A DNA stretch of 64,000 nt from an uncultured bacterium (GTDB lineage: Bacteria; AUK180). The stretch's first letter is position 1. The number at the start of each line of letters is the position of its first letter. Where the stretch lies: positions 10,991 to 74,990 of the forward strand of contig CALMGJ010000029.1 of assembly GCA_937863565.1 (NCBI GenBank), written 5' to 3'. Made by a program: the position numbers and the translations under genes. A model generated the notes under the pieces. The model was not told the origin of the DNA and searched no databases. It saw only the letters and a program-made list of their open reading frames with translations. Below, piece after piece: positions 20,185 through 56,007 of this stretch.

Positions 20185-21292
20185 GCCCTTCCAGCATGGC
20201 TTCGAGGGAGAATTCCCTGTCTATGCTCTTCATAGCGGCTTTAGACATATTTTCGAACACATCATTGTCTTCGCAGAGCAGAAGGAGTTTCTGTACAGCT
20301 TCTCCGGCTTCGGAGTGCTTGAACAGGAACCCGTTCTTGCCGTCCTTTATGATCTCCTTTACGCCCCCTATCTCCGAAGCTACTACCGGTTTCCCAAGAA
20401 GCAGGGCTTCGATCAGAGTGCGCGGCATGCCTTCCCATAACGATGTGGACAGGTAAATATCGGAAGCGGCAAGCCATTTATACGGAGACCTTTTAAATCC
20501 CGGCATCAATACGCGGCCTGAAAGGCCGCTTTTCTCCACGATGTGTTCCAATGCCGAACGGGATTCCCCGTCCCCGATGATAAGCGCGGTGATATCATCT
20601 TTTTTTTCCGCAACGCCCTTTATGATCTCAATGAAAAGCGGGAGATTCTTCTGCCTTTTGAACGGGGCTATATTGATTATGATCTTTTTATCCTCCGGCA
20701 ACCCGAGTTCTTTTCTCAACGCCGCACGATCCCCTTTGAATGAACATACTTTCTCGAAATCTATCCCTACCCTGAGCAGCTCATACTGCTCCTTTCTCCC
20801 TATGCAAAGAGCCCTTGCGGTTTCCATATCGTCGCCGGATACGAATATCAGCTTGTGACAGTTCCGTGCCGCGGAACGCTCTCCCATTATTGCGAGTCTT
20901 TTCATTATCCCGTTACGGAAATAATGAAAACCGAAACCGTGAACGGTATGTACGATCAAGGGCACTCGGGCAGACCTAGCCGCTTTACGGCCGAGGATCC
21001 CCGCTTTGGACGAGTGTGTATGCACGATATCCGGACGCTCTTTTTTCATTATTGACTTTAAAGCCTTGAGTGCTTTAATATCCGAATTCAGGTCCAACTC
21101 CCTCTTCAGAGGCGCCAGAAAATATTTTTTATATGAAGGGTCCCCTGCAGACTCCGCGGTCAGTATCCCCCTGTTATTTGATACGAGGACGACCTCATAT
21201 CCTTTCCCGGCGAAATACCGGGCGCTGGCCAGCACCATTAATTGGGCACCTCCCAGCTCGAGCTGGGTTATCACATACATGATCTTCTTCAT
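20159..21292 (-). CDS. Glycosyltransferase family 4
   Basis: The N-terminus YVITQLELGGAQ and the C-terminal EGMPRTLIEALLLGKPVVASEIGGVKEII are GT4 signatures. Confidence 0.8.
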   Translation of the reverse strand: MKKIMYVITQLELGGAQLMVLASARYFAGKGYEVVLVSNNRGILTAESAGDPSYKKYFLAPLKRELDLNSDIKALKALKSIMKKERPDIVHTHSSKAGILGRKAARSARVPLIVHTVHGFGFHYFRNGIMKRLAIMGERSAARNCHKLIFVSGDDMETARALCIGRKEQYELLRVGIDFEKVCSFKGDRAALRKELGLPEDKKIIINIAPFKRQKNLPLFIEIIKGVAEKKDDITALIIGDGESRSALEHIVEKSGLSGRVLMPGFKRSPYKWLAASDIYLSTSLWEGMPRTLIEALLLGKPVVASEIGGVKEIIKDGKNGFLFKHSEAGEAVQKLLLLCEDNDVFENMSKAAMKSIDREFSLEAMLEGLERLYNAD

Positions 21293-21293
21293 C

Positions 21294-22241
21294 TCAGAAA
21301 CCGATCACTTGCTGAGTACCGTTATCTATGATGTAGAGCTTCTCACCTTGATCGATGAAGATCCTGAACGGCCGTATGAACGGCTGAGCTGCGCCAAAGG
21401 ATGTCCATGAAGCCAAAAGATCGCCTGTCAGGCTGAAGAACAGGACCTTCCCGCCGGCAGGGTCCGTAACAACGAGATACTTCGAGAACCAGAATTCCAT
21501 ATCGGAAATATTGGATATGCTCTTTGTGTACTTCAAAGGAAAGGAGAAGATGTATTCTCCTCTCGGGGAGAATACCTTGATCTTATTGCCTGCGCCGACA
21601 TAATAGTTCCCCGATTCATCGACGGCCACCGCCTGAGGATACTCGAAGGAACCGTCCTGCGTGGTTGTGCCCTCGATAGTCATGAGCACATTCTCTCCGG
21701 AATCCGTTTCAAGCAATCGATGGTTGTACGTATCGATCATGATAAAAAAACCGCTCGTTTGATTGTATTTGAAACTGGACGGGTAGAAAGGATTTTCCTC
21801 GTCGTCGTAAGAAAAATCGTAAAGGGTGTTCAGGAATTTACCGTCGGGAGAGAAAATGTGTACCTTACGCGCCATAGAATCGAGGATGTACAGCACATTG
21901 TTCGAAACGGAATAGAACATGTCCGACGGGAATTTAAATGCCTCTTTCTCGCCTGATTCAGCGGGGGTGGACCCTACCGAGATGAGATAGTTCCCAAGAC
22001 CGTCGAAAAGGTTCAGTCTTTTCTTGCTTCCGCCTTCGAGAGTGAAATAGTATTTTCCGCTGAAAGCGAAATCTCTCAGGTCCATAGGTTTCCCGATCTC
22101 TTCAGTATCGAGGATCACTTCCGCTCCTTCCTTATTTTTCGCCTTCAGGTATTTCGAGTCCTCCCCGGCTTTCAAGTTAGTCATTATGGCGCACCCGCCA
22201 AAGATGACACATATAACGGCAATGATCATCTTCCTCATCAT
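21294..22241 (-). CDS. NHL-repeat beta-propeller lipoprotein
   Basis: A lipoprotein signal is present (VICVIFGGCA). Repeated NHL-like blades follow (...YILDSMARKVHIFSPDGKF..., ...YVGAGNKIKVFSPRGEY...). Confidence 0.6.
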   Translation of the reverse strand: MMRKMIIAVICVIFGGCAIMTNLKAGEDSKYLKAKNKEGAEVILDTEEIGKPMDLRDFAFSGKYYFTLEGGSKKRLNLFDGLGNYLISVGSTPAESGEKEAFKFPSDMFYSVSNNVLYILDSMARKVHIFSPDGKFLNTLYDFSYDDEENPFYPSSFKYNQTSGFFIMIDTYNHRLLETDSGENVLMTIEGTTTQDGSFEYPQAVAVDESGNYYVGAGNKIKVFSPRGEYIFSFPLKYTKSISNISDMEFWFSKYLVVTDPAGGKVLFFSLTGDLLASWTSFGAAQPFIRPFRIFIDQGEKLYIIDNGTQQVIGF

Positions 22242-23845
22242 TCGCTCCTAACAAGAGATTTTAAATATTTCAGCTGCAATTTAGCTTCATTGGAAAAGGG
22301 ATCTATCTTCAGTATATCGGAGAACGCTTTAAAAGAATTTGCGAATTCCCTCATATAGAGATACGACCATCCTAGAAATTCCAGAGCTTCGATATTCTCT
22401 TTCTGGAATTTCAGGAAAGTCCGGAAATACTCCGCGGCGTTCTTCATCAGATAATCACGCCGTCTCAGGTCAGCAAGCGTCAATTCGGAACTGATATCAC
22501 CCAGAGTAAGGCCCTTTAGAAAATAAATTTTTCCGGCTGTAAGATAGATATCGGCAGCATTAAGGCAATTTTTCTCCATGTTCTCTACTGCCATCATGAT
22601 CTCGTCAACAGCCTCGTCTAGCCCGGTGGCCATCTCTTCCTTTGTATAATATTTTTCTAAGGATACTTCGTAGAGGAATTTTGAATATTCAAAATGCGCC
22701 TGGTATTTCGACGGAGGCAATTTTTTTATCTCTCCCAACAGTTCTACAGGATAACTTTCATCTTTTCTTGCAGTGTAGTACTTGGCCATGAGCAGGTAGC
22801 CCATGAACTCATCGGGGTGGACGCGCAGAAGTTCGTTGATGAACCTGTATGCAGTGGGAAGGTCAGTTTCGAGCGCATACTGGGAAAACAGGATAAGGTT
22901 TTCCGCAGGTATCTTCTTGATCTTCCTTTCAGTTATTCTTTTCAGGAGTTCCAGCACTTTCTCCTTTATATCCAGAAGATAGTAGACCCTGAGAGAGAGT
23001 GTGTAATATTTCAGATAGTCCATTTCGTCAAGTTTCCTGATATCATCCTTCGAAATCCTGTCAAGGTTCGTCTTGGCATCGATGATCCGCCCGAGATTGA
23101 AATCGGTTTCCGCGTTCAATATCAGGTATTTCGACTGCACTTCCTTAAGGGCGACGGCATCTTCTCTTCCGAACTTTAAAAGGTAAATACTCAGAAGAAG
23201 GCTCAGCGATTCATTGTACCTGATCTTTCTGTAGATCTCGGTCAGTTCTTCATAAAGTTTTTTATCGTCGGGGAATTTAAGGATAAGTTTTTCATATTCC
23301 ATTCCGAGTGAATCGTATTTACGGATCTTCGCATAATGTTCGAGTAATTTCCGGTGATAGTATTCGTAGTCTATCTCCCTGGAAGGGTCCAGCCTGTCCA
23401 CATTAGCGATCATGTCGAGCACACGCTTCCTGATCGCGACCTTATCCCTGTCTATACTGACGCCGTTGGAGAGTCTGATGCCCTCGTTAAGAGAAGCATT
23501 CTTCAGATAGTGCATACCTTTCCGTTCATTTCCGGTTTGGATGTAAATCAGTCCCATTAGGACATTGAAACCGATCTTACGCGGCGAGATCTTCAGGATA
23601 TCCTCGCATATGATCTGGGCTTGTTCGTACTCCTTTAATTTATAGAGGGCCAGAGCCTGATAATACTTGATCAATGCCCGGGATTGCGGGTCCTCTGTTT
23701 CAAATTCAGGCGTAAGGATGAGTTTATCGTAATATTCGGCGGCTTCCGCGAATTTTTTTGAAGCGATCAGTTCCTGGCCCGCATTGTGATCCAAAGCGGC
23801 AATAGCCGCTCCGAAAAGCATTAAGAAAACGGCCAATCTCTTCAT
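22238..23845 (-). CDS. Secreted TPR-repeat protein
   Basis: TPR-like repeats run throughout the protein. The likely start is MKRLAVFLMLFGAAIAA at 23845, overlapping the PBP1A stop (ATGA). The tracked ORF extends to a GTG at 23878. Confidence 0.65.
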   Translation of the reverse strand: MKRLAVFLMLFGAAIAALDHNAGQELIASKKFAEAAEYYDKLILTPEFETEDPQSRALIKYYQALALYKLKEYEQAQIICEDILKISPRKIGFNVLMGLIYIQTGNERKGMHYLKNASLNEGIRLSNGVSIDRDKVAIRKRVLDMIANVDRLDPSREIDYEYYHRKLLEHYAKIRKYDSLGMEYEKLILKFPDDKKLYEELTEIYRKIRYNESLSLLLSIYLLKFGREDAVALKEVQSKYLILNAETDFNLGRIIDAKTNLDRISKDDIRKLDEMDYLKYYTLSLRVYYLLDIKEKVLELLKRITERKIKKIPAENLILFSQYALETDLPTAYRFINELLRVHPDEFMGYLLMAKYYTARKDESYPVELLGEIKKLPPSKYQAHFEYSKFLYEVSLEKYYTKEEMATGLDEAVDEIMMAVENMEKNCLNAADIYLTAGKIYFLKGLTLGDISSELTLADLRRRDYLMKNAAEYFRTFLKFQKENIEALEFLGWSYLYMREFANSFKAFSDILKIDPFSNEAKLQLKYLKSLVRSE

Positions 23846-25845
23846 TCCAGCCATTTTACGTCCTTTAAGCTGTCCCACAGAATATCATTCTCTTTCCTCG
23901 GGGATTTTTTAGTGACTTCAGTCCCTTCGATGAAAGGCAGGAAGATTCTTCTTTCTGAATAAGGGCTGGCAAGCAACCCTGTGTCCCTGTCAATTTCCAG
24001 GAATTTTATCCCTGAGGGCATACGGAAATCAACCGGGACCTCTTTTTTTAGGATGGGGGCCATCGCACGGTTCCAGACAGGCGCTGCCACTGCGCCGCCT
24101 GTCATATCTTTCCCGAGGCTCTTCTGGGGATCGTCGTTGCCTATATAGACCGCAGTGACATAGTTCGGAGTATAACCGATGAACCAAGCGTCGGTATAAG
24201 AATTGGTAGTACCGGTTTTCCCGGCTACGGGATAGCCTTTCACACGGGCGGCCATTCCCGTTCCGTGCGCTACGGCCATCTTCAGAACCCAATTCATGAG
24301 AAATACCGTTTGATCATCAATGATCTTCTTCCTTGAAATGTCCGCTTGTTCAAGGACCCGTCCTTTCTGGTCCTCAATCCTCTCGATGAAATACGGTTCG
24401 ATCCGGAAACCGCCGTTGGCAAGAACGCTGAAAGCCCCTGCAATCTCAAGAGGTGTAACTTCATTGGAGCCAAGAGGCAGTGATGCTATAGGGGCAAGAT
24501 ATGACTTGATACCCATTTCCCTTGCAGTCTTCAGAAGTTCGTTCACCCCGATACGGAGCAGGACTTTAAGAGCTACGATATTGATCGATCTTATTATCGC
24601 GTCATAAACCGTTACGGGGCCGAGAAATTCCGAATAATTCTTTGGAGCCCATCCGATAAGATCCTCCTGTTCGGGATCTTCGCTCTGTTTTTTTTCAAGT
24701 TCGGGAAAATGGATCGGACCGTCGACCCATAGATCGGCCAGGGTTCCTATTCTGTGCTTGAAGTATGTGGTGTAGAGAAATACTTTGAATGCAGATCCGC
24801 ATTGCCGTGGTGCTTGAGTTGTCCTGTTGAACTTGCTTTCATTATAGTCCCTGCCGCCGACCATTCCGAGTATTCCTCCGGTCAAAGGGTCGAGCGTGAT
24901 CACGCCTCCCTGCCGGCCGCTGTCCTTCAAAGCGTCTTCAAGGGAAGTCTGAACATCGTTGCGCAGTGTCGTATATACTTTAAGCCCTCCGTTGAAGGTT
25001 ACAGCATAACCGTACTTATTCACAAGGTAAGTTACGACATAATCGCGGAAATACGCCGCGAAATCGTGTTCTCTCTTTCCTTCGACGATCTCTATCTTCT
25101 CCTTCACAGCATCGTCGAACTCCCGTCTGGTGATGAACCCATGCTCGAGCATTTTTTCAAGGATGACCTTCTGCCTTTTCAATGCTCTGTTCAGATGACG
25201 AACGGGATAGAAATAACTGGGCCGCTGGGGCACCGCTGCAAGAAGGGCCGCTTCGCCTAGCGTGAGATCCGAAGGTTTTTTATTGAAATAAGAAAGAGAC
25301 GCCAGAGAGACGCCGAAATTGCCGTGACCGTAATTGATCAGGTTTAAATAGAGTTCCAGGATCTGGGATTTGGAATATTCCATCTCTATCTTCAATGCGA
25401 AAAGCGCTTCCTTGATCTTCCTTACAAGCTTTTTCTCGGCTCGGTTAGTCATGTTCTTGGCAAGCTGTTGGGTGATCGTGCTTCCGCCCCCCTTTTTGCC
25501 CATGAAAACGATGGCTCTGATAAGCGGTTTAAAGCGCAAACCCTTATGCGAAAAGAAGAAAGGGTCCTCTATGGCCAAGGTAGAATTGATCACATACTCG
25601 TTCATCTCGTCAAGCGGGATGATCTCCCTTTTCTCCGCGAAAAGGGGACAGATCAGCTCTCCGCCGCGGTCGAACATCTGTGTTTGTTCCTTGGGCTGGT
25701 AAATATCCAGATCGATCGGGAATTTCATTAGCGAGACATAGACAATGAGAAGGAGTGAAAGAAAGAGCCCTCCGAGGAACGGAATGAGCGCAAAAAGGTA
25801 GTATCGCGCAAAGAACGAGGATATACCCTTGAACGCCTTTCTCAT
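23842..25845 (-). CDS. Class A penicillin-binding protein (bifunctional glycosyltransferase/transpeptidase, PBP1A)
   Basis: GT51 motifs are present (EDPFFFSHKG, GGSTITQQLAKN). Transpeptidase motifs are present too (SAFK, KTGT). A single N-terminal TM anchors it. Confidence 0.9.
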   Translation of the reverse strand: MRKAFKGISSFFARYYLFALIPFLGGLFLSLLLIVYVSLMKFPIDLDIYQPKEQTQMFDRGGELICPLFAEKREIIPLDEMNEYVINSTLAIEDPFFFSHKGLRFKPLIRAIVFMGKKGGGSTITQQLAKNMTNRAEKKLVRKIKEALFALKIEMEYSKSQILELYLNLINYGHGNFGVSLASLSYFNKKPSDLTLGEAALLAAVPQRPSYFYPVRHLNRALKRQKVILEKMLEHGFITRREFDDAVKEKIEIVEGKREHDFAAYFRDYVVTYLVNKYGYAVTFNGGLKVYTTLRNDVQTSLEDALKDSGRQGGVITLDPLTGGILGMVGGRDYNESKFNRTTQAPRQCGSAFKVFLYTTYFKHRIGTLADLWVDGPIHFPELEKKQSEDPEQEDLIGWAPKNYSEFLGPVTVYDAIIRSINIVALKVLLRIGVNELLKTAREMGIKSYLAPIASLPLGSNEVTPLEIAGAFSVLANGGFRIEPYFIERIEDQKGRVLEQADISRKKIIDDQTVFLMNWVLKMAVAHGTGMAARVKGYPVAGKTGTTNSYTDAWFIGYTPNYVTAVYIGNDDPQKSLGKDMTGGAVAAPVWNRAMAPILKKEVPVDFRMPSGIKFLEIDRDTGLLASPYSERRIFLPFIEGTEVTKKSPRKENDILWDSLKDVKWLE

Positions 25846-26804
25846 CTGCTGTACTCCTTCGAATCCACAAGTTCCCCGTTCAGATATACTTCTACGGATG
25901 CAGTTTTTATAAACTTGATGATCTTGGATATCTTGTAGCCGCCCATGATCCTTTCATTGAGGAAGGTCAATTTCACACCATCCTCGATCAGGACCGCTTT
26001 CAGCCTTTTTCTTCCCGGGAAATTCCCGAACTCGTATTCGTAGGTCTCGTACCTGTATTCGTCAGCCGAAGTATCCTTTATCTTCGTGGGTGTGTATGAA
26101 GATGTGTCCGCGCCGGTGATATCTGTCACTTCGAATTCGATCGCGGAACCGATCCTGACCATCGTTCCGGGAAAGATCGACTGATAAACGATGTCGCCTT
26201 TCGTTTTCGGATTGATCTCTTTAAGCCCCATGTCCTTAATGACCTTTCTTACGAATTCATAATCGTTCTTCATCAGATACGGAACGATAACATAGTCCTT
26301 AACCATCCCGTCATTCACTGTTACATCGATACGGGACCCCTGCTCTGCCTTCGTACCGGCCGGAGGGTCCTGGTAAACGATCTGATTCTTGAGGTTGATC
26401 TTACCCTTGGCCGTCTTCACACGCCCAAGGAGCAGCCTGCTATCCCTAAGAACGCTCCCTGCGTTCTCTATGTCAAGCCCACTAAGATCGGGAACACTGA
26501 TACGGTAATCGTTTTTCGCCACATAGATCTCGACCGGATAATTTTTCAGAATGACCCGGCCCCTCTTGGGATACTGGTAATAAACGATATCGTTATCATA
26601 TTCCTTGGTCTCCTGATCGATCACTCTGAAATGCACCCTTTCCTTTCTTAGGATGGCCCTGGCTTCTTTCTCGGTAAGGCCGATAACGGACGGAACGATC
26701 ACTTCCTTCTTAACAATGAATATATCGAGCCCGAGGAAGAACGAAAGGGCCAGAACGACAAGGGCTGCCGAAGTATAGATGATGAAAAGGATATTTTTTC
26801 TCAT
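25842..26804 (-). CDS. Membrane-anchored protein with three PASTA domains and an uncharacterised C-terminal domain
   Basis: It has an N-terminal TM followed by three PASTA-like units of about 65 aa. The units begin VIVPSVIGLTEKEARAIL..., ISVPDLSGLDIENAGSVL... and VIVPYLMKNDYEFVRKVI.... No kinase or transpeptidase domain is attached. Confidence 0.7.
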   Translation of the reverse strand: MRKNILFIIYTSAALVVLALSFFLGLDIFIVKKEVIVPSVIGLTEKEARAILRKERVHFRVIDQETKEYDNDIVYYQYPKRGRVILKNYPVEIYVAKNDYRISVPDLSGLDIENAGSVLRDSRLLLGRVKTAKGKINLKNQIVYQDPPAGTKAEQGSRIDVTVNDGMVKDYVIVPYLMKNDYEFVRKVIKDMGLKEINPKTKGDIVYQSIFPGTMVRIGSAIEFEVTDITGADTSSYTPTKIKDTSADEYRYETYEYEFGNFPGRKRLKAVLIEDGVKLTFLNERIMGGYKISKIIKFIKTASVEVYLNGELVDSKEYSR

Positions 26805-26854
26805 AATTTAGTATTATATTAAATTTCGCCGATTTTTGCAAAACATGTCTCGAT

Positions 26855-29800
26855 TCACGAATTCAGTATGTCCTTGATCTGGCGATAAAGCCCGCTTTCT
26901 CGGTCGATCTTCTCCTTGAGCACATTCAAGCGGGCGCGGTACTCGCTTCTGCCCTCAAGTTTGTAAAGGAATATATTCAATTCAGCCTTGTCTTTGCAGC
27001 TTCTGGATATCTTCCTCGTCTCTTTCAGAGCAGATATCTTCTTTTCCTGTTCTCCCTTCAAGAACGCCAGTTTGATCTTGACCTGGAGCAGATTGCGGAG
27101 TTCTGTTATTTCTCCGTATTTTTTCGCGATCTCCATGTATTCGTCAATGTGGCCTTCGATCAGATCATATCTCCCGATCTCGATGGCGGCTACCATAAGA
27201 GCTTTGTATCCGCTCAGGAGAATATGATCATTGTTCATTTTCTTCAGGCTTTCAATGCTTTCCAGAGCAAGTTCGAAAGCCCTCTGATTGTTGTTCTCCA
27301 GATTTTCGATCAGCGCCAGATTTGAAAGGTCAATGCCGATCCCGCGCGGGTCGTTCAGGTTTCTGTTGATCTCCAGCGAACGTGTGAATTCCTTTCTGGC
27401 CGTGATATAATCTCCGAAATAAGCACAGATGCTGGCATGGTTGCCTAGTATCATCGCTTCCTTTCTCAGATCACCGTTTTTTCTGGAAAGTTCCAGACCG
27501 CGCAGGAGGTATTCCGATGCTTGATTGAACTCGGAAAGATAATAATATGCTGCGCCGATGTTCAGGTGCAGCGCCGCCAGAGATTTATAATCCCCTATCT
27601 TCCTTGATTCGGTCAAGGCCTTCAGGTAATATTTGAGCGCAGTCCTGAACCTGTTCCTGTAGAGGCAGATATTGGCGCGGTTTATCATATTGTACATTGA
27701 ATGTGCGAGCATTTTATCGTGTTTAAGGAACGATGCCGCTTTTTTATTGTATTCCCATGCTTTATCGAGGTCGCCCATTTGTTGATAGACAAGGCCCGTA
27801 TTGTCATAGACTTTCGAGTATTCGATATCTGTGCGGCCTTTCATTCTCAGAACGCGGTTGTAGTGCTCGAGGGCCTTGGGATTGTTCCTTCTGAAATAAT
27901 AGAGGCGGCCGTAAGCAAGATTGACCCCGTAGCTGTCTTTTGTGATCTTTTCATATTTATTCAGCAATTCCAGGGCCTCGTCGAGCCTGTATGTCGTCAG
28001 ATATGTTTCTATAAGAGAAGAATACACGAACTGAATGTTCCTTTTGCCTTCATAAAAGGAGCGGCACTCCTCAATGTTTTTATAGTAGTTCTTATAATCT
28101 CCGAGCGAAGATAAACAATTTGAATAATCTATTTTCACTTTATAGAGTTTGGCCGGCATGTCGCGGAAAACCTCCATTGAACGCTCGAAAAGCGTCAGGG
28201 CTTTCTTGAATTGCATTCTTGAAAATTCGAAACGTCCGAGTTCCTTGTATAAGTTCCCTGCTTTTGAAAGGTCTCCGCCGTTCTCGTAATGATATGCGAT
28301 AAGCTCTTTTTTACCGGGATGGAGTATTTCCGTATTAACAGCATGTCTTTTATGCATGGCGGAAGCATCTCTTCTCAACTGTATACCGTAGATCAATTCT
28401 CTAATGATATTATGCTTGAATACATACTGCACACCCGCCGCATGTTCTAAAATGTCGTTCTCTATGCAGGTGTTCAGCATTTCAGGCGAGATCTCCGTTT
28501 TCAAACTTTTATCTACTACATCCTTGAAGAAGATCTTTCCGAAAACGGCAGCGGACCGCAGGAAATTCCTGACATTATTCTCCATGCGGTCGAAATTCGC
28601 GATCACGGCCGCTTCGAGCTCCAGGGGTATCTCATTGATGTCCTTTCCCGAACGCAGCAGCCCCGCCACAGTGAACAAGTAGAAAGGCACGCCTTCCGTT
28701 CTCTTTCTGATATTCACGATCATATCCTCATCTGCATCGATATTCAAAGCGGTAAGGAATGTCTTTATCTCCGCTTCATCGAACGGGATGAGTTTCAATG
28801 ATATTTTCCGACCGGCGAGTTCGGGGATATCTGCCTTCTCGCCTTTTACTGTCCCCAGCACCTTCAAATTCCTGCATTCGTTCAGTAATTTCCCGAGGAG
28901 ATCACCGAAAGCGGCATCTATATAATTGATATCATCGATAAAGAAGACAGGGATCTCTTTCATCCCGTTCAGTGCATATACGATGCCGTCGGAAAGCATC
29001 TTGCTCTTTATGCTTGCCGGAAGGCCGTCAAGGTCCGGGCGGCCGGATAAACCGGTAAGGAAATAACGGTACGACTCCCTTGTGATCTCGTCATCTACAC
29101 TTGAAGAAAGAAGATCCGCAATATCGAATCGCTCTTTGAGCGCATTGAGCAATAACCCTATGAAATCATCAATATCCGGGCTTGCCTTGTTCAAAAGGTA
29201 TACAAAGGGGAAATACGAGGCATCAAGATCGCCGAGGATCTTTCTTGCCAGAAATGTTTTCCCTATGCCGGCATCGCCGTAAAGAATTATCCGCGCGCTT
29301 CCGTTCTCTGTGAGCGAGCGTTTTATCTCATCCGCTTCTGTTTTCCTTCCTATAAAGATGCCGGAGCGGTCCTTTTTGATCAGGGCGTTTATACGGTGCA
29401 CCGATATCCCGGTCTTCTTGCCCTTGACTTGAAATGACCCTATCGGAGAACTGTCCGCATTCACGCATTCAGCCGTAATGCTGTCCGTAAGAAGAGCTTT
29501 TTCCTCAAGCGACATCAACCGGGCAGCAGTATTGACCCTGTCCCCTATAGCAGTATACTGAGTGAAGTGAGCCCCGCCCAGGAATCCGCACCAGGCTTTC
29601 CCTACGGTAAGGGCAACCCTCACATCCGCTTTGATCTGTTTTGATATTTCAAGGATCTCCAGCCCGGCGGCGGCGGCTTCATCGGCAAAATTCTCCTTTA
29701 ATTTCGGGATCCCCCAGAAAGCGGGCAGCACAAATCCCTTATCTGCATATTCCAACTGATTGAATAGCCCTCCCCCGGAGATTATCCGTGACAGTATTTT

Positions 29801-30424
29801 CATCAGAAGTGCTTCATTTTCGTATGTGCTCTCGTCCAGTGAAATGAAAAGCGATGCTACGGTCCGGAACTCGTTATTCGCTTCTTCTACGGCTTTATCG
29901 GAATATGACGTGAAATGCCTGCTGTAGGTCTTACGGAAATCGCCGGCGGGAGGCCTGCTGAACGTAGAAAGCGAAGCAGCTTCCTTAACGGGATCTCCGT
30001 GCAGGCAGAAAATATCCCGGCCCGGGCAGGCGAACCTGTCCAACAGAACCTTGCCCGAGGAATATCCGGTCTTCAGCGACAATGTAAATCCGGTTCCGGG
30101 AAGTATGCTCCCTCTTCTCTGAACGATAAGCGCTTCAAGTTCTTTTTTGACCTTTTCAACAGGGAAATCCCAGAAAAATGCCGCCATGAAGGCGTCACCC
30201 GAATAATTGTAGATATACCCCCCGTTATCTCTGATGATATTATCTGCCGGTTCGTACACGCCGTTGATTATTCCGGTAAGTTTTTCAAGGCCGGTCTTCC
30301 CCTCATTGAGCAGATGCTCGGTTATCCTGGTAAATCCTACAAGATCCCCCCAGAAGATACCTGCCGAGGCTTCAGTTCTTCCTTCTTTGATGTTCTTTAG
30401 GAAATCCGGGCTTAACTTTCTCAT
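26855..30424 (-). CDS. Multidomain signalling protein: two class-III nucleotidyl cyclase homology domains, a NB-ARC/AAA-type ATPase and C-terminal TPR repeats
   Basis: The first cyclase homology domain (CHD) is ...FWGDLVGFTRI...SGDAFMAAFF. The second is ...ALTVGKAWCGFLGGAHFTQYTAIGDRVNTAARL. A P-loop follows (ILYGDAGIGKTFLARKILG), and the last ~450 aa are TPR-rich. This mirrors the AC-ATPase-TPR arrangement of actinobacterial LuxR-type cyclases, but without an HTH. Confidence 0.75.
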   Translation of the reverse strand: MRKLSPDFLKNIKEGRTEASAGIFWGDLVGFTRITEHLLNEGKTGLEKLTGIINGVYEPADNIIRDNGGYIYNYSGDAFMAAFFWDFPVEKVKKELEALIVQRRGSILPGTGFTLSLKTGYSSGKVLLDRFACPGRDIFCLHGDPVKEAASLSTFSRPPAGDFRKTYSRHFTSYSDKAVEEANNEFRTVASLFISLDESTYENEALLMKILSRIISGGGLFNQLEYADKGFVLPAFWGIPKLKENFADEAAAAGLEILEISKQIKADVRVALTVGKAWCGFLGGAHFTQYTAIGDRVNTAARLMSLEEKALLTDSITAECVNADSSPIGSFQVKGKKTGISVHRINALIKKDRSGIFIGRKTEADEIKRSLTENGSARIILYGDAGIGKTFLARKILGDLDASYFPFVYLLNKASPDIDDFIGLLLNALKERFDIADLLSSSVDDEITRESYRYFLTGLSGRPDLDGLPASIKSKMLSDGIVYALNGMKEIPVFFIDDINYIDAAFGDLLGKLLNECRNLKVLGTVKGEKADIPELAGRKISLKLIPFDEAEIKTFLTALNIDADEDMIVNIRKRTEGVPFYLFTVAGLLRSGKDINEIPLELEAAVIANFDRMENNVRNFLRSAAVFGKIFFKDVVDKSLKTEISPEMLNTCIENDILEHAAGVQYVFKHNIIRELIYGIQLRRDASAMHKRHAVNTEILHPGKKELIAYHYENGGDLSKAGNLYKELGRFEFSRMQFKKALTLFERSMEVFRDMPAKLYKVKIDYSNCLSSLGDYKNYYKNIEECRSFYEGKRNIQFVYSSLIETYLTTYRLDEALELLNKYEKITKDSYGVNLAYGRLYYFRRNNPKALEHYNRVLRMKGRTDIEYSKVYDNTGLVYQQMGDLDKAWEYNKKAASFLKHDKMLAHSMYNMINRANICLYRNRFRTALKYYLKALTESRKIGDYKSLAALHLNIGAAYYYLSEFNQASEYLLRGLELSRKNGDLRKEAMILGNHASICAYFGDYITARKEFTRSLEINRNLNDPRGIGIDLSNLALIENLENNNQRAFELALESIESLKKMNNDHILLSGYKALMVAAIEIGRYDLIEGHIDEYMEIAKKYGEITELRNLLQVKIKLAFLKGEQEKKISALKETRKISRSCKDKAELNIFLYKLEGRSEYRARLNVLKEKIDRESGLYRQIKDILNS

Positions 30425-30465
30425 ATAGGATTATATCAAAAAATCCGGGAACAGACAAACGGGGA

Positions 30466-31557
30466 TCACATCCCGGAGAGAAAGACCTCTACGCCGTTGT
30501 TCTCAATGTATTTCACTGCTCTGAGAAGCGCTTTACGGGGAGCCGGGCCCCATTCCTGCGGGACCCTTGAAGGCACGATTAGCGTACTTCCTCTTTTCGC
30601 CTTTTTGAAAATATCCCCGTACATGATGTCCTGACAGACCGCCAGCGCAATAGTATGCCCTTTCCAAGCCAACCCGGTTTTTCCAGATTTTTCGCGGCAT
30701 GAACGCTCAAGGAAAATCACAGGATGTTTTTTAAGGACAAAGACGCTTTTTTCCAGTCCGACCAACCCTGCAGCGCTGCAGCCGTTCTTGGTATAACCGA
30801 AGGCAAGCAAGCCGTTCCGGGCGAAATACTCCCTGAAAATATCCCTGAACGAGGCAATGTCCTCCTCAATATCCCTGTTAAAAGCATACTCGTTGAGTAT
30901 CAGGATATCGATCCCCCTGTATCGCGAGACCTTGTCCAGAAGCGTTACAGAACCCGACAGGTCGGGTGCGGCCACTTTGAGCCCGGTTTCAGGCATTTCC
31001 TTCCAAGAAGGAAGGAAGAGAACGATGAAGAGAAGGATAACAGCACATATCCTTCTTCTTCCGAGAAGGAAAAGAACGGAGGCCAGAGTGAGCGGAAATA
31101 TAGAGGGCGGACATGCACCGGGGAAATTGAACAATTCAATGGCCGGATGGGAGAGCAGGGCTCCGGGAAAAAGGCGGATAACCGTTTCAAGGAATATTTC
31201 CCCTAAAGGGAAAAGGAGGATAAACAGGAGATTAACGGCCTTTATTTCAGCGGAAAGCGTCAGGAATACCCCGCCATATACTGCTGAAGCGGTCAGAATG
31301 AGAAATAACGCTTTATAACCAACGGCTCTGAATGTCCAGAGATTCGCAGACAGAAGCAGGATGAAAAAGAACACGGTATTCCTGGAAAAGTCCGCTTTTC
31401 CCGACAAAAGCAGATAGATGCCGCCATAAAGAAAAATAAAATACAGGACGGCATTCCTGTAGAAGAAATATCCTGCCGCCAGAGAAAACAGCGGTATTAT
31501 TAGCCGTATCGGAGGATCTTTACTTCCTTTTGCTCTCTTCATTAATGATATTATCAA
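30466..31557 (-). CDS. Membrane-anchored carbon-nitrogen hydrolase family protein (apolipoprotein N-acyltransferase-like, short form)
   Basis: The N-terminal ~170 aa are multi-TM. The C-terminal nitrilase-like domain carries an E-K-C triad (LILNEYAF / KKHPVIF / ALAVCQD). At 363 aa it is shorter than a canonical Lnt. Confidence 0.55.
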   Translation of the reverse strand: MIISLMKRAKGSKDPPIRLIIPLFSLAAGYFFYRNAVLYFIFLYGGIYLLLSGKADFSRNTVFFFILLLSANLWTFRAVGYKALFLILTASAVYGGVFLTLSAEIKAVNLLFILLFPLGEIFLETVIRLFPGALLSHPAIELFNFPGACPPSIFPLTLASVLFLLGRRRICAVILLFIVLFLPSWKEMPETGLKVAAPDLSGSVTLLDKVSRYRGIDILILNEYAFNRDIEEDIASFRDIFREYFARNGLLAFGYTKNGCSAAGLVGLEKSVFVLKKHPVIFLERSCREKSGKTGLAWKGHTIALAVCQDIMYGDIFKKAKRGSTLIVPSRVPQEWGPAPRKALLRAVKYIENNGVEVFLSGM

Positions 31558-32488
31558 GGTTCATGATCGTCGACTGATCGGACACGATCACCTTGATATT
31601 ACCGGCAAGTTTCTCCACATACAGGTATTTTATATAGTTGGGTGATTTTCTGAGGGCCGTTTCGATGCTGTTTATCTTTGTAGCCTCGCCGTCCGCCTCG
31701 ATCTTTTTCCTCTCGGCCTCTTTCCTTTCTTTCTCGAGAACATAGTCCATTTTCTGGGCTTGCTGTTCCGCTATCTGCTTTTCCTCGATCGATCTCTCGA
31801 ACTCCTTGGGAAAGATGATATCCCGCAAAAGAAGTTTCTCCACGATGAAACCTATGGACTTCAGATCGTCAGTGATATTGTTTAAAAGCACGGATTGGAC
31901 CTCGTTCCTTTTAAGAGAATAGAGTTCCATGACCTTATACTGAGAAACAACGTTCCTGATGAGAGATCTTATCGAAGGGCGGATGATTTTTTCTTCAAAT
32001 TCCTTGCCAAGGGTTTTATGAATATCGGCAAGTTTATCTGGATCGATCCTATACCAGACGGTCACGTCCACGCCGACCTGAAGACCTTCGCTCGTGGGCG
32101 ACCATACGGAATCGTCGCCCGTCTTTCTTCCTTCATTGGCGGCGATCGACATCGTATATTCCTGGATCCTCACATCGTATTTGTCCAGTTTGTATATGAA
32201 CGGCACGATGATCTTAAATCCCTGCGACAGTGTGGAAAGATTCCCCTGAGGAGAGAACCGGTTGAACTTCACCGTCATCTCTCCCGGATGGACGATCACT
32301 ACTGCCTGGGGAATGATCACGATAAGAAGAACGATCACTATGATTATTGTGATATTCGCCGGACTGAAGGTCTTTCTGGCCTTTACGGAGAACTGGTCAC
32401 GCCATGCTCTTCCCGCAGGTGTTGAGAGATAGATCAAAAGAAAAATGAAAGCAATGAACAGCAAAAAAAAGAAAAAACCCATATGCAC
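31520..32488 (-). CDS. SPFH/band-7/prohibitin family membrane protein
   Basis: It has an N-terminal TM, a PHB-like domain (...VIVHPGEMTVKFNRFS...VGVDVTVWYRIDP...) and a coiled-coil tail. Confidence 0.8.
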   Translation of the reverse strand: MHMGFFFFLLFIAFIFLLIYLSTPAGRAWRDQFSVKARKTFSPANITIIIVIVLLIVIIPQAVVIVHPGEMTVKFNRFSPQGNLSTLSQGFKIIVPFIYKLDKYDVRIQEYTMSIAANEGRKTGDDSVWSPTSEGLQVGVDVTVWYRIDPDKLADIHKTLGKEFEEKIIRPSIRSLIRNVVSQYKVMELYSLKRNEVQSVLLNNITDDLKSIGFIVEKLLLRDIIFPKEFERSIEEKQIAEQQAQKMDYVLEKERKEAERKKIEADGEATKINSIETALRKSPNYIKYLYVEKLAGNIKVIVSDQSTIMNLDNIINEESKRK

Positions 32489-32491
32489 CTC

Positions 32492-33136
32492 CTATCTTTT
32501 TATCGTTTCGAATACAAGCTCATTCCCGTCAAGGCCGTTAAGGCCCATATAAGCGGCATAATATCCTTCGCGGGAAAATGCATTGATCTCCGTATAAAGT
32601 AAAGCGTTCTTCAGAATGAATATTGCGGGAAGCCCGTTCTCGCCTTCCATCGAGACCGGAATGGCAGAAACCGTTTTCGAAATGCTCACAGGAGTGATGA
32701 CAATGATGCCTTTCGCCAGTGCACCGGGAATGAATGATACGGTGCCGCCCGTCGGCGAGCCTATGTAGATGCCCGCTGAGCCGTCGGGCAATATCATATT
32801 AGCCCCTTTAAGGAAAAGATCACCGGGCCCCATCTTCGCAAGTGCTCCTTCTATCGTACATTCCTCGGGTTTTCCCTTGCGGATCAAAAGGAGCGGATGC
32901 CTTTTCTCGGCAGGCGTTACCGAGAACTTGCCGCCGGAGACTTTCCCTGCCGTATATGATGATGGGTCTATCCCGCAACCCAATTCATTAAGAATATAAG
33001 CGTTCGTCGAACCGTAGTTCACGAGAATATTCCCATCGCCGAGAGCTTTCCGGAAGAACGGTTCCGCAATAAGGTTTTTTGCTATTTTCCCTTTTGCCTC
33101 GGCAGGAGAAAGGATCAGAAGATCTCTTATGCTCAT
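32492..33136 (-). CDS. Hypothetical protein (214 aa, Gly-rich, no recognised motif)
   Basis: It is a long ORF co-oriented with its neighbours and overlaps the HD-GYP gene stop (ATGA). Confidence 0.55.
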   Translation of the reverse strand: MSIRDLLILSPAEAKGKIAKNLIAEPFFRKALGDGNILVNYGSTNAYILNELGCGIDPSSYTAGKVSGGKFSVTPAEKRHPLLLIRKGKPEECTIEGALAKMGPGDLFLKGANMILPDGSAGIYIGSPTGGTVSFIPGALAKGIIVITPVSISKTVSAIPVSMEGENGLPAIFILKNALLYTEINAFSREGYYAAYMGLNGLDGNELVFETIKR

Positions 33137-34962
33137 ATGCCGAAACGCCCCAGGTTCTTCTCGAATATTTTGAGGTAGTTCTCCTGAAGAGCCGCTTTCT
33201 GGAGTTCATCACCCTCTCTGTACCAGAGCATAAGTTCGCGCCTCATCTCTACTTCCCTGTTCACTATTCTGCATTCCTGCGCCATCGCGACAGCCTCCTC
33301 CAGCAGGGTCAGCGCGGAAGGAATATCGTTCTCAAGCTGTTTAATGCAAGCTTCGTAATACTTAATCTCAACCTTATTCCTGTAGTCCTTGAGCCTAAGT
33401 GTAGAAAGCTCTTTTAAAGATGCTTTGGATTTCCGTATTTTTTTCTCCTTGATGAAAAGTTCTGTTGCGGCGATGTAGTAATTCTCTTCGAGCCTGTTCT
33501 CCCTTTCGTATTTCTTCAGTATCCTGTTGGCCGTGCCTAATTGCCCCAGTTTCGTGCAGTTCCGCACCAATTCCAGTTCGGCAAGCTGAATGCCGATCCT
33601 GATATTGAGTTTCCTGGATATTCTCAGGGCTTGTTCGAAGTCATTCTCTGCTTTCTTGAACTCGCCCATGGAAGTGTATACTTTTCCCCTCCCTCCGTAT
33701 GAGAGCGACATCCCGTAAACATCGGACATGTCCATTTTTATCTCCAAAGATTGTTCAAAGAGGGAAAGCGACTTTTTAAAATTCCCGAGTTCATATTGTA
33801 TCCTCGCATGCGAATCGTACAGTTTGGAAAGACTGATATTGATCTCCTCGAATGCCATATTGTCTTTCTCTATCTCGTCAAAGTAGATAAGGTTCGCATC
33901 GGATTTCTTGATGCGCAGCTCGACTATCATCTCCTTATAGATCTCCTCGGCATTGGACATCTCTATCATAGCAGATTCTTTTTTATTGCTCTTCCAGAGG
34001 CTCATGGCAAGATGCCTGTATGCTCGGGCTTTCTCCATTCTGTTTATTTTCGGATCGGAAAGGATCATCTCGCAGATATTTACAGTCGTTCCGTAATCAT
34101 GCAGGTAGTAGAAATAGAGGCCCTGTTCATTAAGGAATTTATCATTGATCGGGATCAAGTACCCGCTTGACAGATTCTCAAGTCTCTTTATGCTCCGCCT
34201 TGATTTTTCGAGCAGCTTCATTTTATTGAACGTCTCTAGTACTTTCAGTTCCGCTTCAAATTTCCTCACGGGATCCTCAAATCTCTTTTCCGCCTCTCTT
34301 AGAAAAAGTACTCCTTTCTCCCAGGCATTATCTATGTAGCCGCTCAGATAGTGAACTCCTGCGGCATACTCGATGGATCCGTCTTCGAAGAGCGATTTAA
34401 AACACTTTACACAGCCCGCATCGTAAAGGATGCCGCTTCCTTCCTCCAGTTCTTTCACGGCCTCCGGAAAAGTATGCTTCTTGGAATACTCCCTGAAGGA
34501 TGTCATCGCGTCAAAAGAATCGCAAACGGCGATGAGCCTCGATTCAAACGGGATATCATCTCCCCTCAGACCTTCCGGATAGCCTGAACCGTCAATGCGT
34601 TCATGGTGATACCTGATGATCTTGTTTATCTGCTTCAGGGCGGGATGATGACCCAGTACGGTCTGGGCATATATCACGTGTTTTCTCATTTCGATGCTCT
34701 CCATCTGCGTGAGAGTGCTCTTTTTCTTTAAAATGGCCTCCGAGACCCTTGCTTTCCCGATATCGTGGAGCTGCGATGCAAGGAAGATCGAGGACATCTT
34801 GTCTTTGGGCAGCATCATCCTTTCAGCAAGAAGCAGGGAGTACAGGCGGACCCTGTCGGAATGCCCCATGGTGTATTTATCTTTTGCGTCTATCGTTCTT
34901 GTAAGGAATTTGATCGCTATCAGAAAAAGGTCGTTAACATTGATCTCCAGAAGATTATCCAT
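33133..34962 (-). CDS. HD-GYP domain phosphodiesterase fused to C-terminal TPR repeats
   Basis: The HD motif (QLHDIGK) and HHERIDGSGYP are present in the first ~200 aa, which indicates a c-di-GMP phosphodiesterase class. The remaining ~400 aa are TPR-like. Confidence 0.8.
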   Translation of the reverse strand: MDNLLEINVNDLFLIAIKFLTRTIDAKDKYTMGHSDRVRLYSLLLAERMMLPKDKMSSIFLASQLHDIGKARVSEAILKKKSTLTQMESIEMRKHVIYAQTVLGHHPALKQINKIIRYHHERIDGSGYPEGLRGDDIPFESRLIAVCDSFDAMTSFREYSKKHTFPEAVKELEEGSGILYDAGCVKCFKSLFEDGSIEYAAGVHYLSGYIDNAWEKGVLFLREAEKRFEDPVRKFEAELKVLETFNKMKLLEKSRRSIKRLENLSSGYLIPINDKFLNEQGLYFYYLHDYGTTVNICEMILSDPKINRMEKARAYRHLAMSLWKSNKKESAMIEMSNAEEIYKEMIVELRIKKSDANLIYFDEIEKDNMAFEEINISLSKLYDSHARIQYELGNFKKSLSLFEQSLEIKMDMSDVYGMSLSYGGRGKVYTSMGEFKKAENDFEQALRISRKLNIRIGIQLAELELVRNCTKLGQLGTANRILKKYERENRLEENYYIAATELFIKEKKIRKSKASLKELSTLRLKDYRNKVEIKYYEACIKQLENDIPSALTLLEEAVAMAQECRIVNREVEMRRELMLWYREGDELQKAALQENYLKIFEKNLGRFGI

Positions 34963-54312: not shown

Positions 54313-54757
54313 TGGCTTCCAGCTTGATCAGCTTGTCGTTCATCGTTTTCAGCCTTTCGCTCAATTTTTTAGTGATATTAAGGAGTATCTTTAAAGCGAT
54401 CCCGGGTTCCTTTGTGATTATATCATTGAAGACCTTCCTTGTGATCAGAAGAAGGTTGGAATCTATGCTGATCTTAGCCGTAGCGGAACGGTAGTCATCG
54501 TCTATAAGAGATAATTCCCCCATATAGTCGCCCTTTGAGATGGATATAAGGAAAGTATCCTCGCCTGCCTTGTTTTTTTTGTAAAGATCTATCTTCCCGT
54601 CAAGGATAACATAGAGAATACCTCCCTGCATACCCTCGAAAAATAGTGTAAACCCTTTTTTATATTCTTTCGTAAAGGCAAGCTGGAGAACTTTTTCCAG
54701 GTCTCCCTGGGAAAGATTTTTAAAAAGTGGGACTTGCATTAATGTTTTATAATCCAT
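54305..54757 (-). CDS. Cyclic-nucleotide-binding domain protein (CAP-family cNMP-binding domain only, no HTH)
   Basis: The 150-aa protein has the cNMP-binding fold pattern FFEGMQGGILYVILDGKIDLY...GDYMGELSLID.... Confidence 0.75.
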   Translation of the reverse strand: MDYKTLMQVPLFKNLSQGDLEKVLQLAFTKEYKKGFTLFFEGMQGGILYVILDGKIDLYKKNKAGEDTFLISISKGDYMGELSLIDDDYRSATAKISIDSNLLLITRKVFNDIITKEPGIALKILLNITKKLSERLKTMNDKLIKLEANE

Positions 54758-56002: not shown

Positions 56003-56007
56003 ACTAC

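Follow-up and report, generated by a model that had tools for sequence, protein, structure and literature searches.

The gene at 26855 to 30424 of the window (the whole stretch of DNA that was analysed, 64,000 nucleotides long) probably encodes a cyclase related to the 'soluble' adenylyl cyclase (sAC), has a predicted promoter of its own, and adjoins a conserved envelope operon of seven genes; the operon is probably a separate unit, and its proximity to the cyclase gene is lineage-specific. The 1189-residue frame proposed in the first-pass annotation occurs with exactly these coordinates in the ORF list, and an alignment with the orthologue from genome L014 confirms its start codon. The claim that the gene heads a minus-strand operon is not confirmed, since genes on the same strand continue upstream as far as 37221. 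The features of the locus are collected in Table 1.

Table 1. Positions of the features discussed, in window coordinates.
Feature	Positions	Strand	Evidence
FAD/amine oxidoreductase, last gene of the envelope block	17930..19180	minus	Pfam
Glycos_transf_4 (WecA-type) protein of the envelope block	19177..20184	minus	Pfam
GT4 of the envelope block	20159..21292	minus	Pfam
NHL/beta-propeller protein of the envelope block	21294..22241	minus	Pfam
TPR protein of the envelope block	22238..23878	minus	Pfam
Envelope block past PBP1A, five genes	17930..23878	minus	Pfam; same order in L005-L013
Class A PBP (PBP1A) gene, 667 aa	23842..25845	minus	Pfam; TIGR02074
PASTA protein gene, 320 aa	25842..26804	minus	ORF list, Pfam, NCBIfam, AF2/Foldseek
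Promoter-like site of the PASTA-PBP1A operon, TTGCAA-N17-TATAAT, in the 50-nt gap	26813..26841	minus	Promoter scan, 10/12
sAC-like (ADCY10-like) cyclase gene, 1189 aa	26855..30424	minus	ORF list, Pfam, PDB sequence and fold matches to human sAC
TPR array, ~aa 700-1140, presumed sensor/interaction arm	27005..28327	minus	Pfam; PDB TPR matches
STAND P-loop NTPase module, ~aa 357-620	28565..29356	minus	Pfam; sequence motifs
Cyclase homology domain 2 (CHD2), C2-like, ~aa 183-348	29381..29878	minus	Pfam, PDB sequence match, alignment
Cyclase homology domain 1 (CHD1), C1-like, ~aa 15-155	29960..30382	minus	phmmer vs PDB, 149-sequence alignment, AF2 secondary structure
Promoter-like site of the cyclase gene, TTGTCT-N17-TATAAT, TG before -10	30430..30458	minus	Promoter scan, 10/12
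Hairpin (30444..30477) and U-run (30437..30442) at the end of the upstream gene	30437..30477	minus	RNA fold
Stand-alone cNMP-binding protein, 150 aa, head of the che cluster	54305..54757	minus	Pfam cNMP_binding, 1.6e-16

The N-terminal part of the protein consists of two class III cyclase domains in tandem, in agreement with the first-pass annotation. The second is recognized by Pfam (Guanylate_cyc at residues 238-338, 3e-8); its best sequence match in the PDB is the C2 domain of sAC (1e-7), with which it has a 'DKG' insertion in common. CHD1 is not detected by Pfam; a phmmer search of the PDB nevertheless aligns residues 23-157 to class III cyclases (4e-5) and establishes it as a genuine domain, with sAC C1 aligned over residues 44-110. 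In the same type of search, residues 24-90 and 209-321 are collinear with C1 and C2 of human sAC. The AF2 model of residues 1-350 is a confident unit (pLDDT 87.3, pTM 0.87), and the top 24 matches to it in a Foldseek search of the PDB all represent the sAC catalytic core, with E-values down to 8e-24 and a TMq of 0.79, followed by the C1-C2 domains of AC9/AC8. According to this model, the two domains of the single chain associate as a C1-C2 pseudo-heterodimer; this arrangement, already suggested from the letters of the sequence, is further supported by the complementary residues of the two domains.

These residues were surveyed in an alignment of sAC with 149 of the best listed family members. 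CHD1 retains both metal-binding aspartates (D27 and D77) and lacks the Asn/Arg pair, which is replaced by K147 and S151, while CHD2 has S195 and A227 at the positions of the aspartates and retains T291, N298 and R302. The protein has a single composite catalytic site, with D27/D77 contributed by C1 and Thr291/Asn298/Arg302 by C2, and the symmetry-related site is degenerate. The same division of roles between C1 and C2 is found in sAC and in the transmembrane cyclases. Across the 149 sequences, D47, D99, N412 and R416 (sAC numbering) are almost invariant, T405 occurs in 122, and the window cyclase has the equivalents of all five. The L014 orthologue likewise keeps the two metal aspartates, the threonine and the transition-state Asn/Arg pair; the P0002 orthologue keeps every catalytic residue that is covered by its 5'-truncated contig, which leaves out the first metal aspartate.

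The purine-binding Lys334 of sAC is replaced by Gln223 in the window protein and by Glu in both orthologues, so that the identity of the cyclic nucleotide product is uncertain, and activity and product are, judging from the sequence, only putative. This replacement, together with N73 and A150 in place of K95 and R176, the bicarbonate residues of sAC, and the failure of Pfam to find CHD1, would fit a tandem that no longer catalyses and serves a STAND protein as a nucleotide-binding or scaffold module. Such a loss of function is unlikely, because the metal Asp pair, Thr, Asn and Arg are conserved in the window protein and L014, and in P0002 as far as it is covered, and because the Lys position is variable family-wide (K in 60, R in 28, G in 15 and E in 11 of the 149 sequences). 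Moreover, Rv0386 of Mycobacterium tuberculosis is reportedly active with Gln-Asn at its substrate-defining positions (Castro et al. 2005, FEBS J).

The catalytic unit is followed by a P-loop ATPase of the STAND type, as annotated at first. Pfam matches to AAA_16 (34.0 bits, cut-off 32.6) and NACHT (29.7 bits, cut-off 26.7) cover residues 357-558, and the module displays an intact Walker A (GDAGIGKT, 383-390), Walker B (FFIDD, 494-498) and GxP motif (GVP, 578-580), all three of which are kept in alignments A2/A3. The label NB-ARC is not confirmed, as this Pfam model scores 18.3 bits, below its cut-off of 23.5, and covers the P-loop alone; 'STAND NTPase' is the correct designation because AAA_16 and NACHT exceed their cut-offs. 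The C-terminal region of about 440 residues is a TPR array with matches to TPR_12 (1.4e-24) and TPR_MalT (838-1133) within approximately residues 800-1133, and to TPR structures in the PDB. No DNA-binding domain was found by Pfam in the 1189 residues, which bears out the earlier description.

This architecture is common and already known, and identifies the protein as a bacterial relative of sAC. Full-length mammalian sAC (ADCY10) has the same N-terminal C1-C2 tandem, which assembles into an intramolecular pseudo-heterodimer with a single active site, and the same succession of a P-loop NTPase and a TPR-like region behind it. In human sAC, C1-C2 precedes a P-loop and putative TPRs (PMC3475452); a STAND NTPase domain, also putative, has been described (PMC6023465). 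The two proteins are only ~17% identical, and the window protein is shorter (1189 against about 1610 residues), with a shorter C1-C2 linker (D27 to N298, compared with D47 to N412 in sAC), the altered bicarbonate site noted above and no identifiable haem-domain region. Bacterial sAC-like cyclases exist, for example in Chloroflexus aurantiacus (Kobayashi, Buck & Levin 2004, as cited in PMC11006738). Members of this CHD-CHD-AAA_16-TPR family share domain order and length class with the window protein, but just 20-25% identity over their full length. An exhaustive HMMER search with a cut-off of E<=1e-10 matched 2351 cluster representatives, and most of the best 150 listed are 1200-1450 residues long with two matched stretches. 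The window cyclase and two MAG proteins constitute a small subclade within the family, characterized by 31-33% identity, a compact linker and Gln or Glu in place of Lys.

The mycobacterial proteins Rv0386, Rv1358 and Rv2488c combine a CHD, a STAND ATPase, TPRs and a LuxR domain; each contains one CHD and is an obligate homodimer. They resemble the window protein in the fusion of a class III cyclase to a STAND NTPase and TPRs, and differ from it in their single CHD and C-terminal LuxR HTH, as opposed to two CHDs and no DNA-binding domain. The sAC homologue SgcA (sGC) of Dictyostelium makes cGMP and has a C-terminal AAA-type ATPase domain, indicating that an sAC-type architecture can yield cGMP and serve chemotaxis (PMC8684759). 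By description, SgcA shares the sAC topology with the window protein, although it is eukaryotic and much larger.

If the protein works like STAND proteins and sAC, its TPR arm would bind a ligand or partner and the NTPase would act as a nucleotide-dependent switch that sets the output of the cyclase, presumably a cyclic nucleotide. Both further cNMP-related genes of the window reported earlier are present, a lone CHD protein at 56008 and a stand-alone cNMP-binding protein; the latter, followed downstream by CheW, CheY, CheC, CheD, CheB and CheA, might serve as a receptor for the cyclase product. The STAND-TPR architecture could also be read as an anti-phage system of the Avs or Pycsar kind, in which a phage protein recognized by the TPRs would trigger a cNMP alarm signal from the cyclase. 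Partial PADLOC matches to PycC (1.2e-12, residues 247-303) and to a TPR model, a HepT toxin gene adjoining the L014 orthologue and a Band_7 gene (Pfam) two genes upstream of the window cyclase point in this direction. However, the PADLOC matches span only generic CHD and TPR segments, no Avs model was matched, no conserved effector gene adjoins the cyclase, and the neighbours differ in all three genomes. The very large family, uniform in architecture, looks instead like a housekeeping signalling family, and a role in phage defence is most unlikely.

The cyclase and PASTA genes appear to be separate transcription units, each with a strong predicted promoter-like site directly before its ATG, contrary to the co-operonic arrangement proposed initially. 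The -10 element of the cyclase site ends 5 nt before the ATG with no SD, an arrangement of the leaderless type, and that of the PASTA site ends 8 nt before the ATG, likewise with no SD. A perfect TATAAT at 5-8 nt from a first-in-unit ATG occurs at five sites, the cyclase among them, against 0.22 expected. In L005, L009, L010 and L012/13 the PASTA ATG is preceded at 6-8 nt by a matching -35/-10 pair despite differing upstream genes. The 50-nt gap, for which both a promoter and a terminator had been envisaged as separating elements, contains the predicted promoter, conserved in position, and no terminator-like hairpin, so in this genome transcription that starts at the cyclase promoter may continue into the PASTA operon. 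The hairpin ahead of the cyclase gene is tentatively regarded as a possible terminator of the upstream unit that overlaps the cyclase promoter; a weak terminator-like match is located there (30474..30462), and the overall fold energy is not better than that of shuffles (z = -0.11).

The genes that follow PASTA are PBP1A, a class A PBP with transglycosylase and transpeptidase parts (534.6 bits to TIGR02074, cut-off 508.75), and envelope-glycan genes, as first annotated. The block PASTA-PBP1A-TPR-NHL-GT4-WecA-oxidoreductase is conserved in four related lineages, always with PASTA as the first gene, whereas the gene upstream varies (DUF4015, an FHA protein, Mem_trans or a 126-residue ORF) and is a cyclase in none of the four. 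Two block-bearing genomes, GCA_021162505.1 and GCA_030622125.1, possess a cyclase orthologue that is not adjacent to the PASTA gene, as the two lie on different contigs; the orthologue neighbours dnaN-dciA-gyrB-gyrA in one genome and a gene on the opposite strand in the other.

These observations bear on the pathway proposed at first, in which the PASTA protein in the membrane would detect muropeptides or lipid II and signal, without a kinase, to a co-transcribed cyclase, coupling the cell wall to cNMP. The common strand, the short gap with no terminator-like hairpin and the further cNMP genes within the window are consistent with it. Such coupling is nevertheless very unlikely: adjacency is seen in 0/4 related lineages, and the envelope operon, which carries a conserved predicted promoter of its own, is found in relatives with no cyclase gene ahead of it, so that the pathway is not supported. 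Only ~4 residues of the PASTA protein precede its TM helix on the cytoplasmic side and the cyclase has no membrane segment, so that there is no obvious surface through which a signal could pass. Translational coupling links the PASTA gene to PBP1A and not to the cyclase: the PASTA stop codon overlaps the PBP1A start, by 4 nt in the window, and an overlap is present in all five lineages. Because the relatives are distant (PBP1A 58-59%, cyclase 31-33% identity) and no closer genome was found in the collections searched, a recent, lineage-specific functional coupling may exist.

The 320-residue protein itself is membrane-anchored and comprises an N-terminal TM helix (residues 2-29) and three PASTA domains (residues 34-227; Pfam 1.4e-25 in three stretches), as previously described; its orthologues in relatives are 31-37% identical. 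Residues 5-226 align to the ectodomain portion of PknB_PASTA_kin (NCBIfam), and the AF2 model matches the PASTA ectodomains of PknB and PrkC/Stk1 in Foldseek, with the difference that the kinase is missing here. The PonA2 PASTA domain (2mgv) is also among the structural matches. Since PonA2 is a class A PBP that carries PASTA in cis, the most plausible reading, by comparison, is that the protein supplies PASTA in trans to the adjacent PBP and is not a sensor for the cyclase, PASTA being encoded here by a separate gene that overlaps the PBP1A start. The protein has no PBP domain in its chain either, and it differs from the PASTA kinases and PonA2 also in an additional conserved C-terminal domain of about 80 residues (roughly 240-320).

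The open reading frames of the window cyclase, the triple-PASTA protein and the class A PBP (PBP1A) begin and end exactly where the first-pass annotation had placed them. In the cyclase, Pfam assigns Guanylate_cyc to residues 238-338, AAA_16 and NACHT to residues 357-558, and many TPR families to the remainder, with TPR_MalT at 838-1133; it finds no DNA-binding domain, in agreement with the annotation. Only the second of the two cyclase homology domains (CHDs; C1-like and C2-like) is detected by Pfam. The first is nevertheless real, and residues 23-157 align to class III cyclases in a phmmer search of PDB sequences (4e-5). Among PDB sequences, the whole N-terminus is matched best by human soluble adenylyl cyclase (sAC; ADCY10), whose C1 (44-110) and C2 (320-435) are collinear with residues 24-90 and 209-321 of the window cyclase. 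AlphaFold2 models residues 1-350 confidently as a single unit (pLDDT 87.3, pTM 0.87). A Foldseek search of the PDB with this model returned the catalytic core of sAC, with both domains, as the top 24 matches (E down to 8e-24, TMq 0.79), followed by the soluble C1-C2 parts of AC9 and AC8.

We compared the active-site residues across 149 family representatives aligned with sAC. The metal-binding aspartates of C1 and the transition-state residues of C2 are kept almost throughout, and the active-site threonine in most representatives (see table). At the reciprocal positions, the window cyclase has K147 and S151 in place of Asn and Arg in C1, and in C2 the metal aspartates are replaced by S195 and A227. 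These residues leave one active site complete and the other degenerate. The intramolecular pseudo-heterodimer suggested earlier is correct because one site is complete and the other degenerate: the metal aspartates come from C1 and the Thr, Asn and Arg from C2, and the AlphaFold2 model and the Foldseek matches agree with it. The alternative that the tandem CHD is catalytically inactive, a pseudo-cyclase, is improbable. Unlike sAC, the window cyclase lacks the purine-binding lysine (Gln223, in the context FNQLEYADKG versus INKVFMFDKG in sAC) and the Lys and Arg of the bicarbonate site.

The NTPase motifs of the protein comprise a Walker A (GDAGIGKT, 383-390), a Walker B of the hhhhDD type (FFIDD, 494-498) and a GxP motif (GVP, 578-580). 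The AAA_16 and NACHT profiles pass their cut-offs (34.0 against 32.6 bits and 29.7 against 26.7 bits, respectively), whereas NB-ARC (PF00931) reaches 18.3 bits, below its cut-off of 23.5, and matches over profile positions 2-43 only, which correspond to the P-loop. Of the label NB-ARC/STAND ATPase, the STAND assignment is thus right and the NB-ARC assignment wrong.

This architecture is that of full-length mammalian sAC, in which a P-loop and putative TPRs lie behind C1-C2 (PMC3475452); this region has also been called a putative STAND NTPase domain (PMC6023465). Among bacteria, enzymes of the sAC type have been described already, in Chloroflexus (Kobayashi et al., cited in PMC11006738). A word-indexed search revealed one close homologue of the window cyclase, P0002 (31% identity), together with dozens of 1200-1300-aa proteins annotated as class 3 adenylate cyclase/TPR repeat protein, many of which contain F.DISGFT at about residue 40, GD.VNLAAR at about 365 and a P-loop at about 465. 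An exhaustive HMMER search with residues 1-350 gave 2351 cluster representatives at E<=1e-10, and 8021 with the threshold relaxed to E<=1e-3; most of the best 150 listed matches are 1200-1450 aa long and contain two matched stretches. Because of the sAC architecture and the bacterial enzymes already described, the window cyclase is a divergent addition to a known, very large family; it comes from a poorly sampled lineage, is still recognisable as a bacterial cyclase of the sAC type and is useful mainly as a further data point.

Active-site positions, genes, promoter-like sites and other features of the window and of related loci (L-numbers)
Feature	Location	Strand	Remarks
Metal-binding Asp (C1)	sAC D47, D99; window D27, D77		kept in 148-149 of 149
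Active-site Thr (C2)	sAC T405; window T291		kept in 122 of 149
Transition-state Asn and Arg (C2)	sAC N412, R416; window N298, R302		kept in 146-147 of 149
Purine-binding Lys (C2)	sAC K334; window Gln223		variable in family; Glu in P0002 and L014
Bicarbonate site	sAC K95, R176; window N73, A150		family mostly T/S/N and A
Cyclase gene	26855..30424	-	1189 aa
PASTA gene	25842..26804	-	320 aa
PBP1A gene	23842..25845	-	667 aa
Gene upstream of PASTA	L005-L008	opposite	DUF4015
Gene upstream of PASTA	L009, 2322-3881(+)	same	FHA protein, 519 aa
Gene upstream of PASTA	L010, L011	opposite	Mem_trans
Gene upstream of PASTA	L012	opposite	126-aa ORF
Cyclase orthologue	L014, 1624-5214	+	GCA_030622125.1
TATAAT-to-ATG site	14651-14664	+	perfect TATAAT
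TATAAT-to-ATG site, PASTA gene	26804-26818	-	perfect TATAAT
TATAAT-to-ATG site, cyclase gene	30424-30435	-	perfect TATAAT
TATAAT-to-ATG site, HD_5 + TPR_MalT gene	34962-34973	-	perfect TATAAT
TATAAT-to-ATG site, lone cyclase-domain gene	55997-56008	+	perfect TATAAT
C-terminal domain of PASTA protein	25845-26087	-	aa ~240-320
Hairpin and six-U run	30437-30477	-	
Gene directly upstream of cyclase	30466-31557	-	363 aa
Band_7/SPFH gene	31520..32488	-	
HD_5 + TPR_MalT gene	33133..34962	-	
GGDEF-PilZ gene	38660..39784	-	
cNMP_binding gene	54305..54757		150 aa
Lone cyclase-domain gene	56008-56604	+	198 aa

The cyclase had also been linked to the adjacent PASTA and PBP1A genes, as a kinase-independent route from cell-wall status to cNMP production. 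A gene-neighbourhood survey identified four close PBP1A homologues (58-59% identity) on contigs from five assemblies, all of which keep the seven-gene order PASTA (320-324 aa)-PBP1A-TPR-NHL-GT4-WecA-oxidoreductase, with PASTA first. A cyclase upstream of PASTA is absent in all four related lineages, and a tblastn search of the relatives' contigs with the PASTA block detected no remnant of a CHD or an NTPase. A search of genome contigs with a two-sequence alignment revealed only two cyclase orthologues in the GTDB species set, both in assemblies that also carry the PASTA block, on a separate contig. In GCA_021162505.1, the cyclase contig ends with an opposite-strand gene; in GCA_030622125.1 (MAG CSMAG_2929), the cyclase has a HepT-like toxin gene on one side and dnaN-dciA-gyrB-gyrA-TPR-mutS2 on the other. 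Among metagenome contigs, no locus was found with the two-sequence cyclase alignment and none with the alignment of PASTA orthologues. Synteny of cyclase, PASTA and PBP genes is thus not conserved.

A 464-aa TPR_MalT ORF that precedes PASTA by about 3 kb in three of the related loci (L006-L008) was considered as a remnant of the cyclase gene and rejected, because it shows generic TPR similarity (29%) only, tblastn reveals no trace of a CHD or an NTPase, and the space is occupied by dnaE and DUF4015. In L009, from MAG AUK180, the protein encoded directly upstream of PASTA has a C-terminal FHA domain, a possible trace of phospho-Thr signalling beside the envelope operon.

The 50-nt gap between the cyclase and PASTA genes (26805..26854) contains TTGCAA-N17-TATAAT, the -10 hexamer of which ends 8 nt before the PASTA ATG, with no Shine-Dalgarno. 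In every relative, PASTA is preceded by TTGACT or TTGATT, a 16-17-nt spacer and a TATAAT that ends 6-8 nt before the ATG. Since the upstream gene is divergent in some relatives with the same arrangement, a promoter must precede PASTA there. Of the promoter and terminator that had been considered for the gap, a promoter-like site is present, at a position conserved in the relatives, and no hairpin or other terminator-like structure was found between the two genes (fold z = 0.49). Some transcription of the envelope operon may come from the cyclase promoter by read-through.

The cyclase is preceded by a promoter-like site of its own (TTGTCT-N17-TATAAT, with a TG ahead of the -10), which ends 5 nt from the start codon. 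Five genes of the window, each the first after an intergenic gap, have a perfect TATAAT that ends 5-8 nt ahead of the ATG and is accompanied by a -35-like hexamer but by no Shine-Dalgarno; uniform placement predicts 0.22 such sites. This excess suggests that leaderless-type transcription units are widespread in the lineage, and that the cyclase and PASTA genes each start one. Upstream of the cyclase, a hairpin with a six-U run spans the stop of the preceding gene and extends into the -35 and spacer of the cyclase promoter. This structure is possibly the terminator of the upstream unit, but with an overall fold energy no better than that of shuffled sequence. An Rfam scan of the whole window gave no match.

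The PASTA protein comprises three PASTA stretches (1.4e-25), as annotated, which match the ectodomains of PknB and PrkC in structure. Unlike these PASTA Ser/Thr kinases, it has no cytoplasmic Hanks-type kinase domain, and its match to the NCBIfam model PknB_PASTA_kin covers model positions 333-562 only (94.6 bits versus a cut-off of 450). The N-terminus, MRKN, leads straight into a TM helix (residues 2-29 in the model), such that the chain starts 1-4 residues before the helix. A direct relay to the cyclase is hard to picture, because the PASTA protein is essentially devoid of a cytoplasmic part and the cyclase sequence has no hydrophobic segment. Coupling of PASTA to the cyclase in this single genome, by way of read-through transcripts, is very unlikely: the kinase-independent hypothesis rested on an adjacency that relatives do not keep and on two genes that each have their own promoter-like site, and the functional link is not supported.

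The genes that follow PASTA on the same strand, down to 17930, are as first described: PBP1A (TIGR02074 above cut-off) and five more, which encode a TPR protein, an NHL-like propeller, a GT4, a WecA-type Glycos_transf_4 and an FAD/amine oxidoreductase. In all five lineages, i.e., the window and its four relatives, the stop codon of PASTA and the start of PBP1A overlap. In PonA2, another class A PBP, the PASTA domain (PDB code 2mgv) is present in cis, whereas the PASTA protein of the window is encoded separately. Based on the translational coupling in five lineages and the PonA2 precedent, the PASTA protein is most simply read as an in-trans accessory of the adjacent class A PBP. The operon points to a PASTA cofactor that acts in trans in peptidoglycan synthesis and, together with the leaderless-type promoter evidence, may outweigh the cyclase finding in worth. 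A PASTA-PBP1A pairing beyond the clade was rejected, as no PASTA gene lies upstream of the next-best PBP1A homologues (Atribacterota, Synergistetes).

Behind the three PASTA repeats, the PASTA protein has a C-terminal domain (~80 aa) whose conservation extends to the clade orthologues and the distant P0083. It has no family match, and AlphaFold2 gives a pLDDT <50 for residues 236-320 with a shallow alignment. Distant stand-alone PASTA proteins (258-320 aa; L002, L003 and L004) are encoded beside rpe, in the orders LepA-PASTA-Rpe and RseP-PASTA-Rpe-BamD, and adjoin neither cyclases nor PBPs. A literature search on stand-alone PASTA proteins found nothing relevant.

The window cyclase is a soluble protein with a single class III catalytic site, predicted to be competent, between two domains of one chain, which also contains the STAND NTPase, with intact motifs, and a long TPR arm. 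In the mechanism we propose, the cyclase output would be set by a ligand or partner bound via the TPRs and by the nucleotide state of the NTPase. The product would be a cNMP, the base of which is uncertain because of the change from Lys to Gln or Glu. A candidate receptor is the stand-alone cNMP-binding protein that heads the che cluster, 24 kb away. Gln or Glu at the purine-Lys position is found in a three-member subclade, formed by the window, MAG AUK180 and MAG CSMAG_2929. Tentatively, and with the balance against it, this subclade could represent a cyclase of the sAC type in bacteria whose product is cGMP or a further nucleotide other than cAMP and feeds the cNMP-binding protein of the che cluster, a reading that we rank as likelier than PASTA-to-cyclase coupling. 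The soluble guanylyl cyclase of Dictyostelium (sGC) has the sAC topology and a C-terminal AAA-type ATPase domain, and produces cGMP (PMC8684759); the subclade would, if the reading is true, be a prokaryotic parallel to this enzyme in chemotaxis. A defence role of the Avs or Pycsar type is highly unlikely for the window cyclase: PADLOC yields partial, generic matches only, with PycC matched at residues 247-303 alone and no Avs match, and the cyclase has no conserved effector neighbour.

Both further cNMP-related genes reported for the window exist, namely the cNMP_binding gene and the lone cyclase domain at 56008. In the latter, the Asn and candidate metal Asp residues (ITDSSHFT, WADD) are retained; a Lys replaces the transition-state Arg (GDPVNTASK), and the protein may therefore be weak, inactive or in need of a partner. 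The 363-aa protein encoded directly upstream of the window cyclase has a multi-TM N-terminal half and no Pfam or NCBIfam match; its C-terminal motifs (LNEYAF ... AVCQD) are reminiscent of a carbon-nitrogen hydrolase or an Lnt-like acyltransferase. The neighbourhood of the cyclase (31520-34962(-) and 38660-39784(-)) is rich in signalling genes, which include that of an HD_5 (HD-GYP-type) and TPR_MalT protein with its own leaderless-type promoter, followed by genes for a 214-aa protein without a family match and a Band_7/SPFH protein, and, separately, a GGDEF-PilZ fusion.
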